A stretch of 6,117 nucleotides of DNA from a virus (lineage: Duplodnaviria; Heunggongvirae; Uroviricota; Caudoviricetes): the IMG/VR virus record IMGVR_UViG_2700989486_000022; one strand, given 5' to 3'. This document shows, in pieces, positions 795 to 6,117 of the stretch (positions are counted from its first letter, which is position 1; every line of letters begins with the position of its first letter). The notes under the pieces are model-generated. The model saw nothing but the letters and a program-made list of their open reading frames with translations, made no database searches and was not told where the DNA came from. Made by a program: the position numbers and the translations under genes.

Positions 795-1346
795 TCAGTT
801 TGGAAGCAGCTCGTATAACAGGGCGTCGGCGGCGGTTCGGCGGTTGTAAAGCCACCATGCTGTGCTGTATGCCACCTGTATCCCTGTGATTTTGTATATA
901 TGTCTGCTTATTTCCCTGAATGGCATGCCGTGCCCATCACGCAATTCAGTTACCAGATGAACAATATGATCGTCGTATTTAGCAGCATGATGTATGCCTC
1001 CACACTTCATTGCGCTGTAACCACGATCGCGGAGTATTTTTTGTATGGTGCATTTGCTACATTTCATTTCCCGTGCCATATCCCTCTTACTTTTTCGGTG
1101 GCGGTTGCTGATTATTTCTGCTATTGCCTTTTCATCCAGCCGCTGGCGTTTCCGCCCAATCAGCCCTCGCTTGCGCAAGGTGATAATGCGCTGCCCCGTT
1201 GCATGAAATGAGCGATTAAGTCTGGATGTTATTTCCCTGATGCTGTGTTTCTGGTACATGCTTATCAGCAACGCATCTTCCTGTTTCGTCCATTGTTTAA
1301 CGTGTCTGGGTGCCTGACCGGGGATGCCCATTGGTTTGAGTTTCAT
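795..1346 (-). CDS. putative DNA-binding protein with three helix-turn-helix-like segments (183 aa); function unknown
   Basis: ORF-track ORF; ATG at 1346 with AAGGGAG about 9 nt upstream; three segments with HTH/Myb-like character (KQWTKQEDALLISMYQK..ITSRL; AIAEIISNRHRKSKRDMAREMKCSKCTIQKIL; MPFREISRHIYKITGIQVAYSTAWW); last gene before the terminator. Confidence 0.7.
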   Translation of the reverse strand: MKLKPMGIPGQAPRHVKQWTKQEDALLISMYQKHSIREITSRLNRSFHATGQRIITLRKRGLIGRKRQRLDEKAIAEIISNRHRKSKRDMAREMKCSKCTIQKILRDRGYSAMKCGGIHHAAKYDDHIVHLVTELRDGHGMPFREISRHIYKITGIQVAYSTAWWLYNRRTAADALLYELLPN

Positions 1347-1360
1347 TGTGATTTGCTCCC

Positions 1361-1660
1361 TTACTGGTTAAGGAAAAAATCAAAAACCTTGTCGATGCGT
1401 TGCAGCAACTCTTGTTGCATTGCTTCCGGCGTTTCTGGTTCGCCTAGTGACTCCAGCGGTGCGCAGAAATCCTCGATTTCATGGCGGAGTGTCAGGCGAA
1501 TGGCGAGAGGTGTGGTTCTGGAGTGCTCCAGCTCATCCAGTAGTGCCAACACGGCAGATGGCGAGAGCATTGCGCGAAACGCCAGTAATTTTTGATGCGT
1601 TGCCATTCGTTGCAGGTCAGTTGCCAGTTCGCGTAGTTCCTGGTGGTTGATGGTGCTCAT
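1361..1660 (-). CDS. hypothetical protein (99 aa), acidic, predicted helical
   Basis: ORF-track ORF; start ATG overlaps the stop of the upstream gene (ATGA at 1657-1660); AAGGAA about 11 nt upstream. Confidence 0.65.
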   Translation of the reverse strand: MSTINHQELRELATDLQRMATHQKLLAFRAMLSPSAVLALLDELEHSRTTPLAIRLTLRHEIEDFCAPLESLGEPETPEAMQQELLQRIDKVFDFFLNQ

Positions 1661-1902
1661 GCTCTGGCTTCCTTCAGTAGCTGGTTAAACATGTGAGTAA
1701 GTGGGTTGCCACACCCGAACGGCATCGGGTTTACCTGGTAAGAGAACCGACCGCCTGTTTTGCGCTCTTCTCTGATGACTAAGCCGTCACGCCAGAGTCG
1801 GCGCAACTCAGCATTAATGGCTGTGGTTGGGGTATTCAGCGCGGCGGCGATTTCTCCACCGCTACAACCCGGATTGGCTGTGATGTAGTCCAGAATGGTC
1901 AT
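1657..1902 (-). CDS. putative winged-helix DNA-binding protein (81 aa)
   Basis: ORF-track ORF; ATGA overlap with the upstream gene at 1899-1902; CAGGAG about 8 nt upstream of ATG; sequence pattern (GGEIAAALNTPTTAINAELRRLWRDGLVIREERKTGGRFSYQV) is typical of a winged HTH. Confidence 0.65.
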   Translation of the reverse strand: MTILDYITANPGCSGGEIAAALNTPTTAINAELRRLWRDGLVIREERKTGGRFSYQVNPMPFGCGNPLTHMFNQLLKEARA

Positions 1903-2156
1903 CTGCGTGACTCCTGTACCTGTCGGATAAGGTTCACCTGCACCACGTTGGTGGCGCAGAAGTAAGTGTCGTCAGTGAGATAAATGTGATGCGCGTCAGG
2001 TTGCGAACGGTGACGGTCGAGCGTTTTAATCAGCCGTTCGTCAACTTCGTATTCACGCCCTCTGGATGTGAAACGAATGACGGAAAAACGCTTATTGCCA
2101 TTGCGCCCCCTTTGTCCAGTAACCCTATGCGTTAAATACGGTGCGCTGTGCGTCAT
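1899..2156 (-). CDS. hypothetical basic protein (85 aa from ATG at 2156; the ORF track starts one codon earlier at TTG 2159)
   Basis: Open frame overlapping the 3' end of the 136-aa gene by about 30 nt; no clear Shine-Dalgarno; several rare Arg codons near the start, so less certain than its neighbours. Confidence 0.45.
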   Translation of the reverse strand: MTHSAPYLTHRVTGQRGRNGNKRFSVIRFTSRGREYEVDERLIKTLDRHRSQPDAHHIYLTDDTYFCATNVVQVNLIRQVQESRR

Positions 2157-2535
2157 CAATGAATGCGACTTGAGAGCGCTCTATCAGGCGGAGATTTGTC
2201 AGAATTTCTGATTCCCTTATGGGGTGAGGAGTGATCAGGTATTTATCCTGTAATCCGACGATAATGGTGTATTGCTGTGGCTCCGAGCCAATTGTGTAAA
2301 TAAGGCGTCCGGTGTTAGACAAATCCAGTCCGGTGACTGGTTGTGTTCTGAGAACCGTTAGTTCAGCATCCTGTTTTTCGATAATTTCGGCTGCTTCGGC
2401 GGTTACTCTTGCTATCATCATGGCTGTGGTGGCAGGCCCAATCATTCCTGCATTTGTTGCATCCTGAATGGCTCTGTTTGCGGTCTCCGATATATTTTTT
2501 AGCGCAGTTATAATGCCTTTTTCTTTTGCGTTCAT
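2125..2535 (-). CDS. hypothetical protein (136 aa)
   Basis: ORF-track ORF; ATG at 2535 with GGAGA about 6 nt upstream; no family recognised. Confidence 0.65.
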   Translation of the reverse strand: MNAKEKGIITALKNISETANRAIQDATNAGMIGPATTAMMIARVTAEAAEIIEKQDAELTVLRTQPVTGLDLSNTGRLIYTIGSEPQQYTIIVGLQDKYLITPHPIRESEILTNLRLIERSQVAFIDDAQRTVFNA

Positions 2536-2628
2536 TTTTGTATCTCCATTATTTACGTGTGTGAATGCCTCCGTTAATTCGGATGGTTTTCACGTTTTCT
2601 TATTTAATCTGGTGTTTTATTTGTGCTG

Positions 2629-3290: not shown

Positions 3291-3641
3291 TTATAAATCA
3301 GCCTGTTTAATAAAACTTTGCCCGCGAAGCAGACGATCAACCGTGCGAAGTGCTTCGTATAATGTGAAATCCTGCCCGAATTGATTGTCGCCGCAGCTCA
3401 ATGCAAAAATGCGGTTTCCGGTAAACGGATTGCGTGGGCATTTGTGGACCACGATCCCGGCTTTCTCAATCAGCCAGGCATGCTCGCCGATTTGTTTTAC
3501 TGGGTAGCCATCCGGCGTTGCGTGTGTTTCGCTCAGGCTGTAGCGAGAGCTGCTACGTGATGCGCTGGTAGCGAAACGGTTAGCATGACGTTCCGCCCCG
3601 TTGCGGAATCGCTGCTGTGAAGAATTGCGCCGTTCCTTCAT
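3291..3641 (-). CDS. hypothetical protein (116 aa) with Arg/Ser-rich basic N-terminus
   Basis: ORF-track ORF; ATG at 3641 with GGAG about 12 nt upstream; 37 nt downstream of the cox-like stop; N-terminal 35 residues are low-complexity basic (RRNSSQQRFRNGAERHANRFATSASRSSSRYS). Confidence 0.6.
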   Translation of the reverse strand: MKERRNSSQQRFRNGAERHANRFATSASRSSSRYSLSETHATPDGYPVKQIGEHAWLIEKAGIVVHKCPRNPFTGNRIFALSCGDNQFGQDFTLYEALRTVDRLLRGQSFIKQADL

Positions 3642-3678: not shown

Positions 3679-4104
3679 TTATGCTGCTTTACCGCTGATA
3701 TTTCTGTTTCGTCTGCCACTTGTTGGCTTAAACAAAAACAGACGGTTTTCCCAGTCGTGCCATTCCTGAGGTGCGTTTTCGATGAGGCGATCGCATGCTT
3801 CATCCCACGCTTTTCTGTTGATGTAGAGTTCAGCGTTTCCGCCAGGTTTAAGAGGGTCCGCCATATACACCGCAGGTAGCTTTCCTGCTTTGGCCATGCT
3901 TACGATGGCATCAACGGTCTTTCCGATATACATCGCAAATCCTTCTTTTGACAGGAGATGCGAGGGATTTTCTGAAAGTCGAATTTCTTCACGTTCACGT
4001 GCTTTGCGTCCTGTTTTTTGATGCTCACCTTCTGGCATTTCTGACAGGTGATCGCATCGTGTTCCGCAAAGTGACTCAGGCGCGTTTTGAGTGCTTTCTT
4101 GCAT
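3679..4104 (-). CDS. cox: Cox-like excisionase / early-operon regulator with an N-terminal extension (141 aa)
   Basis: First gene of the leftward operon, divergent from the C-type repressor as in P2. The C-terminal 85 residues (FAMYIGKTVDAIVSMAKAGKLPAVYMADP...WHDW) resemble my recollection of P2 Cox (FAKLIGK...GKLPVIDMTDP...DGW). ATG at 4104 has a strong GGAGG 7 nt upstream. An alternative internal start at 3933 (AAGGA upstream) would give 84 aa. Confidence 0.7.
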   Translation of the reverse strand: MQESTQNAPESLCGTRCDHLSEMPEGEHQKTGRKAREREEIRLSENPSHLLSKEGFAMYIGKTVDAIVSMAKAGKLPAVYMADPLKPGGNAELYINRKAWDEACDRLIENAPQEWHDWENRLFLFKPTSGRRNRNISGKAA

Positions 4105-4512: not shown

Positions 4513-4578
4513 CGGTTCACCAGGCATTTATTTCCCAGAGCTGTGATCAAGATGATGTTTTCATTGGAGGGCTTCCTT

Positions 4579-5574
4579 ATGTCGATTAAGAAGCTCGCTA
4601 ATGGCAAATTTTGTGTGGACGTGCGGCCTGCTGGATCAGAAGGAAAGAGATTCAGGCGGCGATTTGATACTCGTGGTGAGGCTGTTTTGTATGAGCGTCA
4701 TGTATTGCAGCATTACCACGACAAAGACTGGGTTGATAAGCCAACAGAACGGCGGTCGCTGAGGGAGCTACTGGATTGTTGGTGGTTGTATCACGGTAAA
4801 AATCATCCTTACGGTGCGATGGAGCGAGTGCGTATTGCTGCGGTCATTAGTGATCTTGAAAGTATTAATGTTACACGCAGTGATCAACTTACTCGTAAAA
4901 ACATAATTAATTATCGGTTATTGTTGCTTAACCGCGGAATAAAACAATCCACGGTTAATCGTTATTGCGCAATGATGAGTGGTTTTTTCACAAAACTAAT
5001 TGACGCAGAGGAATATTCTGGGGCTAATCCGTTTCATGATGTGAAAAAACTTAATATCAAACAGCCTGAAATGGCTTATTTGTATCATGAAGATATTCCA
5101 CGATTACTGGAGTTGTTATCTGGTGATGAATTAAAAGCCGTCTTGTTGTGTCTGGCAACAGGTGGAAGATGGAGTGAAGTTGCAAATATCAAGGGGGAGC
5201 ATGTTATTAGCGGCAAAGTCATTTTTATGGAAACAAAAAATGGGAAGCGTCGCGTTATACCTATATCGTCAGAACTGGAGTGCATGATTAAGACGAAGGC
5301 TACTGGTCGTTTAATTTATCCGAGTTATGCCGCTGTCAGAACGGCTATCAGAAAGGTGAGACCCGATCTTCCTGAAGGGCAGTCGATACATGTTTTACGG
5401 CATACCTTTGCCACTCACTTCATGATTAATGGCGGGAATATCATCACTTTGCAGAGAATACTTGGGCATAGCACTATTCAGCAGACGATGACTTATGCCC
5501 ATTTTGCACCAGATTATCTGCAGGATGCTGTGCGCTTTAATCCTGTGGCTGAGTTGTCCAGATATTGCCCATAA
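4579..5574 (+). CDS. int: P2-family tyrosine integrase (331 aa from ATG 4579; the ORF track begins at an upstream GTG 4543)
   Basis: N-terminus MSIKKLANGKF..VDVRP matches P2 Int MAIKKLDDGRYEVDIRP; catalytic-region motifs HVLRHTFATHFMINGGNIITLQRILGH and YAHFAP are present; GGAGG 8 nt upstream of ATG 4579. Confidence 0.9.
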   Translation: MSIKKLANGKFCVDVRPAGSEGKRFRRRFDTRGEAVLYERHVLQHYHDKDWVDKPTERRSLRELLDCWWLYHGKNHPYGAMERVRIAAVISDLESINVTRSDQLTRKNIINYRLLLLNRGIKQSTVNRYCAMMSGFFTKLIDAEEYSGANPFHDVKKLNIKQPEMAYLYHEDIPRLLELLSGDELKAVLLCLATGGRWSEVANIKGEHVISGKVIFMETKNGKRRVIPISSELECMIKTKATGRLIYPSYAAVRTAIRKVRPDLPEGQSIHVLRHTFATHFMINGGNIITLQRILGHSTIQQTMTYAHFAPDYLQDAVRFNPVAELSRYCP

Positions 5575-5700: not shown

Positions 5701-5865
5701 CTCGCGATTTTTTTTTGTAACTTTTCCATCTTTTGCTTTTCTCTCCGAGCCGCTTTCCATATCTGCAATCGCATAAAAAACTCTGCTGGCGTTCACAAAT
5801 GTGCAGGGGTAAAACGTTTCCTGTAGCACCGTGAGTTATACTTTGTATAACTTAAGGAGGTGCAG

Positions 5866-6117
5866 ATGCGTATTACCATAAAAAGATGGGGGAACAGTGC
5901 AGGTATGGTCATTCCCAATATCGTAATGAAAGAACTTAACTTACAGCCGGGGCAGAGCGTGGAAGCGCAGGTGAGCAACAACCAACTGATTCTGACACCC
6001 ATCTCCAGGCGCTACTCGCTTGATGAACTGCTGGCACAGTGTGACATGAACGCCGCGGAACTTAGCGAGCAGGATGTCTGGGGTAAATCCACCCCTGCGG
6101 GTGACGAAATATGGTAA
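5866..6117 (+). CDS. chpS: ChpS (ChpBI) antitoxin of the ChpB-ChpS toxin-antitoxin pair, MazE/AbrB-type (83 aa)
   Basis: Protein MRITIKRWGNSAGMVIPNIVMKELNLQPGQ... matches E. coli ChpS as I recall it; AAGGAGG 5 nt upstream of ATG 5866 (the ORF track begins at GTG 5860); stop TAA at 6115-6117. Confidence 0.9.
   Translation: MRITIKRWGNSAGMVIPNIVMKELNLQPGQSVEAQVSNNQLILTPISRRYSLDELLAQCDMNAAELSEQDVWGKSTPAGDEIW
6111..6117 (+). CDS. chpB: First codons of chpB toxin gene (ATG GTA A.., M-V-K), overlapping the chpS stop; truncated by the window edge
   Basis: ATGGTAA at 6111-6117 gives the ATGnTAA overlap typical of coupled antitoxin-toxin pairs; identification relies on established knowledge that chpB follows chpS, since only 7 nt are visible. 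Confidence 0.35.

Follow-up and report, generated by a model that had tools for sequence, protein, structure and literature searches.

Layered small genes, including a frameshifted one, in the early lytic operon of a P88-like prophage

Do the small, overlapping genes that lie between the immunity switch and replication gene A of a P2-type prophage form one functional cassette, and what might they do for the phage? The stretch of DNA analyzed here (hereafter the window) comprises 6,117 nucleotides of the IMG/VR virus record IMGVR_UViG_2700989486_000022. A sequence-only reading of its interval 1361-2535 had proposed a tightly coupled, probably stoichiometric cassette of four genes, encoding 136, 85, 81 and 99 aa, with a possible function in host takeover or anti-defense. 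An annotated prophage that carries genes for a P2-type capsid, terminase, Cox, integrase and replication endonuclease shares 99.4% identity with the window, whose nearest phages are members of Xuanwuvirus. The window represents the early lytic operon on the Cox side of a P88-like prophage (Xuanwuvirus, Peduoviridae, P2 family) adjoining chpS. The interval is flanked by the immunity switch on one side and by gene A on the other, with its genes upstream of gene A in the same operon (Table 1).

Table 1. Positions of the genes and associated elements in the window.
Feature	Coordinates	Strand	Description
Leader before the swap slot	2536..2628	-	Conserved; small hairpin at about 2561-2593
g1	2125..2535	-	136 aa; from ORF list; phrog_9338
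'85-aa' ORF of the sequence-only reading	1899..2156	-	Downstream g2 frame plus a chance ATG within the 3' end of g1
g2, native 67-aa gene, inactivated here	1899..2101	-	phrog_3459; from alignment with relatives
g3, minimal winged helix	1657..1902	-	81 aa; MarR_2, HTH_24; phrog_1687 and phrog_19053
g4	1361..1660	-	99 aa; phrog_4144; Ead/Ea22 N-terminal segment and family-specific C-terminal half
183-aa helix-turn-helix gene (context)	795..1346	-	Fills a variable slot 14 nt downstream of g4; own GGGAG

The minus-strand ORFs of 136, 81 and 99 aa were confirmed at the positions listed, and their description as small co-directional genes of a temperate-phage early operon is supported. Profile searches returned full-length PHROG matches for the small genes (E 1e-39 to 1e-63), with individual values of 1e-63 for phrog_9338 (g1), 4e-40 for phrog_3459 (g2), 2e-31 and 8e-39 for phrog_1687 and phrog_19053 (g3) and 1e-58 for phrog_4144 (g4). 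All of these families are labeled 'unknown function' save phrog_1687, which is labeled by domain. Mean dN/dS values across 6-8 prophages are 0.42 for g1, 0.27 for g3 and 0.20 for g4. Since full-length PHROG matches are combined with dN/dS values of 0.2-0.42, g1, g3 and g4 can be considered real genes; all three are intact and conserved, and purifying selection acts on them. Hundreds of E. coli genomes carry annotations of the same genes, which are catalogued as hypothetical and are common rather than unusual. Profiles from Pfam, PHROG, NCBIfam and PADLOC agree with the earlier statement that a recognizable domain class is limited to the 81-aa protein. PDB sequence searches gave no significant match for any of the four proteins, and literature searches on their accessions, P88, CP-933T and Peduoviridae early genes retrieved no functional data on them.

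The coding strand reads ATGA at both junctions for which start/stop overlaps had been described, with the g3 start codon overlapping the g2 stop at 1899-1902 and the g4 start codon overlapping the g3 stop at 1657-1660. Translational coupling from g2 through g3 to g4 is plausible on the basis of these overlaps; g3 additionally has its own GGAG 8 nt upstream. Such overlaps are not peculiar to the interval, as the upstream pair of a DUF4754 gene and a 37-aa gene overlaps likewise at 2739-2742.

Neither the 85-aa gene nor its overlap of 32 nt with the 136-aa gene proved to be native. In the phages P88, Shae_phiSM and 705R2 and in the EC958, O157 and O104:H4 prophages, g2 encodes 67 aa and begins at an ATG (in some relatives a GTG) that matches window positions 2101-2099, 23 nt past the g1 stop and behind AAAGGGGG. 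The window retains this ATG, preceded by a strong ribosome-binding site, GGGGG, at 2106-2110. An alignment of BEC1, Shae_phiSM, P88 and 705R2 shows that the window and strain BEC1 read ATGGCAA-TAAG where the relatives have ATGGCAATTAAG, i.e. one T is absent beside position 2094, a 1-bp deletion at codon 3. As a result, the frame from the native start closes after 23 codons (around position 2030), and re-insertion of one T recovers the 67-aa protein. The deletion allele occurs in just one of the 793 genomes that contain this junction, with g2 intact in the rest; g2 has thus been knocked out in the window by a rare event. The '85-aa' gene is an artefact, a by-product of this frameshift: its ATG at 2156 lies within g1 and has no ribosome-binding site upstream, the 67-position phrog_3459 profile covers only residues 23-86 of the long ORF, and the 85-aa call was found once in the protein collection (P0010). 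For BEC1, the PGAP annotation instead gives a 59-aa product from an ATT codon at the position corresponding to 2078 of the window.

The native g2 has a mean dN/dS of 0.20, and AlphaFold2 predicts a five-strand all-beta fold (pLDDT 88) for which fold searches gave no confident match to a known fold. An exhaustive profile search recovered only 17 representatives, all short, among 1.84 billion proteins, and the matches to g2 in a scan of species genomes were confined to E. albertii, Salmonella and a single assembly of Vagococcus that is probably contaminated. The 246-position phrog_19053 profile matched both g2 and g3, hinting at a natural fusion. The longer proteins retrieved (P0067, P0073, P0076, P0069 and P0018) are all frameshift read-throughs with junk sequence, and phage 503458 encodes g2 and g3 as separate, intact genes. 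The fusion is unproven and probably an annotation artefact. Another lead came from weak structural matches in BFVD between g2 and proteins labeled 'flagellar and swarming motility', together with a weak FlbD match on the gene after the g3 homolog in Klebsiella phage RAH1; it was rejected, as a profile comparison indicated no relation (probability 0.4%).

The distribution of the genes shows three layers instead of one cassette. Among 5426 complete E. coli genomes, a marker of the operon backbone was present in 1396, g2 together with g3 in 1333, g4 in 1147 and g1 in 831. The g2-g3 pair is near-universal (about 95% of the operons of this prophage lineage), g4 is common and g1 is facultative. The idea of a single stoichiometric four-gene cassette is contradicted by the facultative and mosaic nature of g1 (831 versus 1396 genomes) and its absence from P88, which is viable and forms plaques (PMC5285337), as well as by the frameshift of g2 with intact neighbors in the window and by the lack of g4 in two phage records. 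Downstream of g4, the variable slot contains SPFH and membrane genes in P88 and an Ash gene in 705R2, and no annotated gene in the EC958, O157 and O104:H4 prophages.

At the upstream end, g1 occupies a swap slot behind a conserved leader, in that the same leader precedes g1 (in the window and EC958), a 106-aa gene that replaces it (in O104:H4) or g2 directly (in P88). For this leader with its small hairpin, the fold energy is -12.6 kcal/mol (z -3.6). Promoter-like and terminator-like sites in the region do not exceed their frequency in shuffled sequence, and no operator-like repeats were found in or around the genes. g1 has a ribosome-binding site of its own (GGAG) ahead of the ATG at 2535 and is represented by 91 protein clusters, which come from Escherichia, Shigella, Salmonella and Citrobacter. 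In its AlphaFold2 model (pLDDT 81.6), two helices form a hairpin at the N-terminus (residues 3-64), and a small beta domain comes after it. The gene is itself mosaic: compared with other alleles at the DNA level, codons 1-45 are 56% identical and codons 46-136 are 97% identical, and g1 is full length at the DNA level in only 57 of the 831 genomes that carry it. The divergent segment has a dN/dS of about 0.28 with saturated dS, which speaks for an exchange of alleles and against positive selection that is still at work.

The winged-helix assignment of g3 holds, as both MarR_2 (PF12802, 32.4 bits, cut-off 27) and HTH_24 (PF13412, 30.9 bits, cut-off 21.9) match residues 2-52 above their thresholds. 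The winged helix spans residues 2-60 and is followed by a tail of about 20 residues with a conserved C-terminal sequence, NPLTHMFNQLL. DNA binding is the most likely activity of g3, judging from this domain class. PGAP names the protein as a member of the MarR family, with which it shares the winged helix-turn-helix core. MarR proteins have about 140-150 aa, with N- and C-terminal dimerization helices; in contrast, g3 matches only the core of the 61-position model, and its 81 aa leave no room for such flanking helices. The MarR model proper (PF01047) scores 17.3 bits with g3, below the cut-off of 24.6.

Homologs of g3 with 30-47% identity were detected in Stx, Klebsiella and Serratia phages, in different genomic settings. 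In Stx phages, the homolog (46% identity) lies in the leftward early operon and is followed by a DUF4752 gene and a bona fide Ead_Ea22 gene; the flanking genes of 100 aa and 193 aa are unrelated to g4, g2 and g1. In Serratia phage Eta, the homolog follows bet. Klebsiella lambdoid phages (RothC/D, ST15-VIM1phi2.1 and RAH1) carry a winged-helix gene after replication gene P, and in three of them the g3 homolog begins exactly at the gene P stop. The RothD protein is 32% identical to full-length g3, including the C-terminal NP.T..FNQ.L tail, and its gene overlaps the next one by ATGA at the sequence level, while for two other records a 4-nt overlap is given by coordinates only. These Klebsiella genes differ from g3 in phage type and operon, in a length of about 100 aa, in the lack of a g2-like gene upstream and in a variable downstream gene. 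An 'Ead/Ea22-like' annotation in RothD was not reproduced by Pfam and has no BLASTP similarity to g4, and no Ea22-type neighbor of the g3 homolog was detected in the Serratia phages or in Klebsiella phage RAH1. The winged-helix/Ea22 neighborhood is recurrent, not universal, and could reflect that both genes live in accessory regions.

For g4, the relation to Ea22 concerns its N-terminal part. The Ead/Ea22 model PF13935 matches residues 22-47 only, with 22.5 bits (cut-off 27), and residues 1-43 share 63% identity (E 8e-15) with the N-terminal end of a Stx-phage protein for which the same model gives 40.6 bits; all PHROG and Pfam cross-matches of g4 fall within the first 67 residues or fewer. 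Both genes are early and non-structural, and in Stx phages Ea22 is preceded, at a distance of one or two genes, by a winged-helix gene of the g3 type. The Ea22 protein of lambda has 182 aa, with a central coiled coil and a C-terminal domain (PMC10834534), and the Stx-phage members compared have 217-221 aa, whereas g4, with 99 aa in total and N-terminal cross-matches, appears to lack both of these regions. Moreover, g4 sits in a P2-type operon, unlike Ea22 of the lambdoid exo-xis region. Ea22 has been reported to be pro-lysogenic (PMC7093339, PMC10834534). An Ea22-like activity is the most likely one for g4, as an extrapolation from about 45 residues that score below the Pfam threshold.

Among known phages, P88 provides the closest counterpart, as gp08-gp09-gp10 are orthologs of g2-g3-g4 in the same order, at the same operon position and with the same ATGA junctions. 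P88 differs in the lack of g1, in its intact g2 and in the SPFH and membrane genes after gp10 in place of the 183-aa helix-turn-helix gene. The same genes occur in Shae_phiSM, P884B11 and 705R2 and in the EC958, O157:H7 and O104:H4 prophages, with protein-level identities of 79-93% for g3 and 84-99% for g2. In P2 (orf78, B, orf80-83) and 186 (fil, dhr, CP80-84), the same position from the Cox/Apl switch to gene A is taken by ORFs that are likewise small and co-directional, several of which are non-essential according to the record annotations. BLASTP and phmmer comparisons of g1-g4 with 19 early proteins of these phages (orf78, B, orf80-83 and orf91 of P2; fil, dhr, gp31-34, orf84, tum and orf97 of 186) yielded no similarity (best E 0.09). 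As to whether these are ubiquitous conserved P2-family early ORFs with known roles, the answer is half yes: the ORFs are near-universal in their own prophage lineage, but have neither a relation to the P2 and 186 early ORFs nor a known role.

It appears probable that these layered early-operon genes, with g2 frameshifted in the window, act together early on to modulate the development of the phage or the physiology of the host, without being essential. g1-g4 would be expressed only from the early promoter, because they have no promoter of their own, and would be silent in the lysogen, their products being made once this promoter fires after infection or induction. In this scheme, g3 would bind DNA, g4 could bias the lysis-lysogeny decision in an Ea22-like manner, and g2 might be a lineage-specific partner translated in step with g3. 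In the P2 family, the set may correspond to the accessory genes of the lambdoid exo-xis and nin regions, and g3 and g4 would have a common ancestry with these. The near-universality of g2 and g3 in the lineage sits uneasily with the term 'non-essential'. A more specific version, which we regard as unlikely, is that g3 and an Ea22-type gene such as g4 travel as a two-gene unit that has passed from one phage type to the other, P2-type or lambdoid, and acts as one developmental modulator. In that case, g3 would be the missing DNA-binding partner through which Ea22-type proteins bias lysis versus lysogeny, g2 and g1 would be additions specific to the lineage, and the exchanged hairpin at the g1 N-terminus might follow a target that varies in the host or phage.

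That the genes encode small early proteins which counter host immunity or switch off functions of the host, perhaps as a complex, has no direct support and is judged rather unlikely. A position in the early operon, which in phage 186 includes fil and dhr according to the record annotation, and the small size of proteins without known domains are in line with such a role. The same holds for g1, which sits in the swap slot, has alleles that diverge deeply over the first 45 codons, as could fit a variable target, and shows the highest dN/dS of the four (0.42). This divergence, however, points to allele exchange, as described above, and none of the proteins is similar to a characterized one, including in the PDB searches. 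The PADLOC-DB models of defense proteins returned no match for g1, g2 and g4 and only weak ones for g3 (E 0.002 or worse, to the helix-turn-helix parts of CARF and Csa3 models), and nothing was found in the literature on an anti-defense role of these proteins. A complex of all four proteins is at odds with the g2 frameshift and with the way in which g1 and g4 are each present or missing independently.

An assignment as replication accessory proteins, in which g3, along with g2, would bind the DNA of the phage to support the replication module or regulate it, is improbable. The location upstream of gene A in the same operon, the g3 homologs that start at the gene P stop in three Klebsiella lambdoid phages and the occurrence of the pair in about 95% of lineage operons are all compatible with it, but the Stx-phage homolog lies in a leftward operon away from replication genes, the homolog in phage Eta follows bet, g1-g4 resemble neither P2 B, orf81 nor the other P2/186 early proteins compared, and two prophages that otherwise look intact can dispense with g2 to the point of carrying it frameshifted. 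It is highly improbable that g2 and g3 constitute a toxin-antitoxin or abortive-infection pair in which the upstream gene encodes a small toxin and the downstream gene a DNA-binding antitoxin. Their ATGA overlap, small sizes and putatively DNA-binding second partner resemble such modules, and g2 is lost by frameshift with g3 retained; yet Pfam, NCBIfam and PADLOC gave no toxin, antitoxin or defense match above noise, and the fold of g2 matches no known toxin fold confidently. Additionally, g2 shows ordinary purifying selection and is disrupted in just one of the 793 genomes, and the pair lies in a repressed lytic operon without a promoter of its own, whereas a maintenance or defense module is expected to be on in the lysogen. 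Non-essential early modulation is the most likely role.

These genes are present in roughly one in four complete E. coli genomes, with ST131, O157:H7 and O104:H4 strains among the carriers, and the results on them are mainly of corrective use. The '85-aa' gene should be corrected to a frameshift artefact of a 67-aa gene, labels such as 'MarR family' and 'Ead/Ea22-like' exceed what the sequences support, and the 'cassette' resolves into a backbone pair, a common third gene and a swap slot. As g2 and g3 are uncharacterized and occur in about 95% of a very common lineage, they are a reasonable and cheap target for deletion studies. Finally, the recurrent winged-helix/Ea22 neighborhood offers a concrete hypothesis for the Ea22 phenotype.

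Over its full 6,117 bases, the window matches the chromosome of E. coli BEC1-S17-ESBL-09 (BEC1) at 99.4% identity. The matching segment is the left end of a P2-type prophage, which is complete and encodes P2-family capsid, terminase, portal, Cox, repressor and integrase proteins as well as a replication endonuclease, whose gene spans 2.8 kb. The nearest sequenced phages belong to the genus Xuanwuvirus (Peduoviridae): P88, P884B11 and Citrobacter phage Shae_phiSM. In BEC1, the prophage directly adjoins chpS-chpB, and the distance of about 290 nt between the integrase gene and chpS places the attachment site in the chpS upstream region. The four small genes considered here, g1 to g4, are co-directional and lie within the repressor-controlled early operon. 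Cox is 141 aa in this element, with the Pfam Cox domain limited to residues 40-120. In the BEC1 prophage (L001, the BEC1 locus, 7622-8900), genes for a ParM segregation protein and a 'plasmid partitioning/stability' protein separate replication gene A from the portal gene, at a position held by tin and old in P2.

Early-operon features in operon order, followed by the plus-strand genes
Feature	Position	Strand	Remark
cox	3679-4104	minus	first in operon
DUF4761 gene	3291-3641	minus	after cox
95-aa gene		minus	between DUF4761 and DUF4754 genes
DUF4754 gene	2739-2981	minus	after 95-aa gene
37-aa membrane protein gene	2629-2742	minus	directly before g1-g4
g1	2125-2535	minus	136 aa
g2	1899-2101	minus	67 aa natively
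g3	1657-1902	minus	81 aa
g4	1361-1660	minus	99 aa
183-aa helix-turn-helix gene	795-1346	minus	after g4
C4 antisense RNA and isrK genes	531-618, 654-728	minus	between 183-aa and 76-aa genes
76-aa gene	244-474	minus	after small RNA genes
replication gene A	beyond window		last in operon
prophage integrase gene	4543-5574	plus	
chpS	5860-6117	plus	antitoxin of chpSB pair; window ends inside it

The sequence-only reading described genes of 136, 85, 81 and 99 aa as one coupled cassette. Three of these ORFs (136, 81 and 99 aa) were recovered exactly as positioned in the table, and the coding strand reads ATGA at both proposed junctions. That g1, g3 and g4 are real genes is established by full-length PHROG matches (phrog_9338, E 1e-63; phrog_1687/19053, E 2e-31/8e-39; phrog_4144, E 1e-58, respectively) and by mean dN/dS values of 0.42, 0.27 and 0.20 across six to eight diverged prophages. 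Further ATGA overlaps occur in the operon, for example at 2739-2742, so these junctions do not delimit a unit. A sensitive DNA search of 5426 complete E. coli genomes matched the backbone marker (the DUF4754 and 37-aa genes) in 1396, g2 and g3 together in 1333 (1183 near full length), g4 in 1147 and g1 in 831 (57 full length), indicating a near-universal g2 and g3, a common g4 and a facultative g1 in this lineage. These counts, the lack of g1 in P88, which is inducible and plaque-forming (PMC5285337), and the lack of g4 in phages 503458 and 520873, where g2 and g3 are present, refute a single cassette. A second swap slot follows g4. It holds the 183-aa gene in the window, SPFH/Band 7 and small membrane protein genes in P88, and an Ash gene in 705R2; in the EC958, O157 and O104:H4 prophages nothing is annotated at this point. 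The 183-aa protein shows weak homeodomain-like and HTH_38 matches and matches phrog_323 ('transcriptional regulator, D5-like').

The second gene, g2, is not natively an 85-aa gene. In every relative examined (P88, Shae_phiSM, 705R2, strain 54214, EC958, an O157:H7 strain and O104:H4) it spans 204 nt and encodes 67 aa; one base is lost in the window and BEC1, whose start region reads ATGGCAA-TAAGCG, whereas other relatives have ATGGCAATTAAGCG. The native ATG (GTG in some relatives) lies five bases behind AAAGGGGG and 23 nt past the g1 stop, so that the apparent g1/g2 overlap is not native either. This start corresponds to window 2101-2099, from which the frame now stops after 23 codons; restoring one T yields the 67-aa protein with only 2-3 non-synonymous changes from relatives. 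The 85-aa ORF (1899-2156) is the downstream portion of the g2 frame, accidentally uninterrupted as far as an ATG within g1 (position 2156), upstream of which no ribosome-binding site was found. Only its residues 23-86 align with phrog_3459 (67 positions). The deletion allele was found solely in BEC1 among 793 complete genomes carrying the g1/g2 junction, and the protein collection has one further instance of the identical 85-aa product (P0010), so the lesion is real but rare. Speculatively, re-initiation after g1 might still give some product from ATG 2156. For BEC1, PGAP calls a 59-aa protein (L001 13899-14078, window 1899-2078), which by coordinates has an ATT start codon and would be without beta strand 1 of the predicted fold; the annotation looks like a workaround and not a pseudogene call.

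The facultative g1 is a mosaic produced by an allelic swap within the gene. Codons 1-45 (window 2401-2535, minus) share 56% DNA identity with the Shae_phiSM/705R2 allele (dS ~1.7, dN/dS ~0.28), codons 46-136 share 97% with the same allele, and in most E. coli genomes with a g1 match, the match is limited to the 3' 296 nt. Ahead of any slot occupant lies a conserved leader of some 90 nt (window 2536-2628, minus), be it g1, the unrelated 106-aa gene that takes its place in O104:H4 or, in P88, g2 directly. The leader contains a small hairpin at about 2561-2593 (-12.6 kcal/mol, z -3.6, 0/200 shuffles equally stable), which is not an obvious terminator because no T-run follows. In the E. albertii g1 homologues P0202, P0203 and P0206, the linker from the helical hairpin to the beta domain is lengthened by one to three additional tandem copies of a seven-residue unit (DTGLNLS / DTRLNLP).

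None of the four proteins matched solved structures in a sequence search, NCBIfam, PADLOC defence models or the early proteins of P2 and 186. The g2 model (pLDDT 88) is all-beta with five strands and matched no viral structure at E below 0.01. An exhaustive profile search returned 17 g2 proteins among 1.84 billion representatives, and among species-representative genomes g2 is confined to E. albertii, Salmonella and a single assembly that is probably contaminated. An 84% identical gene lies on a 226-kb contig labelled Vagococcus sp. WN89Y, a Gram-positive genus (L014 4001-4201), and homologue P0040 is labelled Enterococcus faecalis; both records are probably enterobacterial DNA contaminating assemblies. 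The winged helix-turn-helix proposed for g3 stands, with MarR_2 and HTH_24 both over threshold; the MarR model proper falls below threshold and 81 aa make up the core only, so the label 'MarR family transcriptional regulator' is overstated. The 246 positions of phrog_19053 span both g2 (83-135) and g3 (162-243). No genuine g2-g3 fusion was found, the longer database proteins P0067, P0073 and P0076 being frameshift read-throughs. For g4, Ead_Ea22 scores 22.5 bits (cut-off 27) over residues 22-47, and residues 1-43 share 63% identity with the N-terminal end of a Stx-phage protein of 217 aa, which itself reaches 40.6 bits. The N-terminal segment of Ea22 is thus present in g4; the coiled coil and C-terminal domain, the defining parts of the studied proteins (PMC10834534), are missing.

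Homologues of g3 also occur in other temperate phages. Stx-converting lambdoid phages and PhiR49_2 carry one (46-48% identical) in the leftward early operon, between the immunity region and xis-int, followed by DUF4752 and a bona fide Ead_Ea22 gene. In Klebsiella lambdoid phages, a 30-32% identical homologue with the same C-terminal tail begins where replication gene P ends, at its stop codon, and has a four-base overlap with the next gene, read as ATGA in RothD only. This next gene is not always the same: ST15-VIM1phi2.1 has DUF4752 and a weak Ead_Ea22 match (20 bits) downstream. The depositors' 'Ead/Ea22-like' label for the RothD gene was not confirmed by Pfam. No Ead_Ea22-type neighbour was detected near the homologue in Serratia phages. 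The winged-helix/Ea22 neighbourhood is thus recurrent across phage types, not universal, and the proximity could conceivably be chance, since both gene types live in accessory regions.

Studied Ea22 family members favour lysogeny by a mechanism left unexplained (PMC7093339, PMC10834534). Promoter- and terminator-like sites in the region show no excess over shuffled sequence. From this result, early-operon membership, the DNA-binding domain of g3 and the kinship of g4 with the Ea22 N-terminus, we infer that the g1-g4 products would appear only upon infection or induction and would modulate phage development or host physiology as accessory early proteins, a proposed likeness to the lambdoid exo-xis and nin genes. 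By its domain, g3 would be the DNA-binding component, and g2 may be a partner whose translation is coupled to that of g3. An anti-defence or host-takeover role, as earlier suggested, fits the early-operon location and variable g1 but is unlikely, and its 'four-part complex' form is contradicted by the way the genes come and go independently of one another. Less probable still is a replication-accessory role: the genes precede gene A here and the homologue follows P in Klebsiella phages, but the Stx and Serratia contexts do not fit. A g2-g3 toxin-antitoxin pair, for which the gene layout is the sole fit, is very improbable. Prophage identity, layering, a g2 pseudogene and the accessory-modulator class, combined in one statement, are moderately probable; identity on its own is nearly certain, and the functional part is weak.

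The sequences and families, with their prophage context, can already be found in public databases and are abundant, including in ST131, O157:H7 and O104:H4 strains. The region is an ordinary piece of a common prophage, in which the frameshifted 67-aa gene needs correction and the winged-helix/Ea22 association offers a modest lead. Further along the operon, the C4 antisense RNA and isrK matches score 80.5 and 64.3 bits (gathering scores 45 and 50), and a promoter-like site (TTGCCA-18-TACATT, 735-764, minus) ends 7 nt upstream of isrK. In BEC1, PGAP overlays these small RNA genes with a partial 'ash family' pseudogene, and in 705R2 an intact 205-aa Ash gene replaces the region. The following 76-aa gene is named 'derepression protein' in P88 and O157 records, and the layout resembles the P1/P7-type arrangement of antisense RNA and antirepressor, here inside a P2-family prophage.
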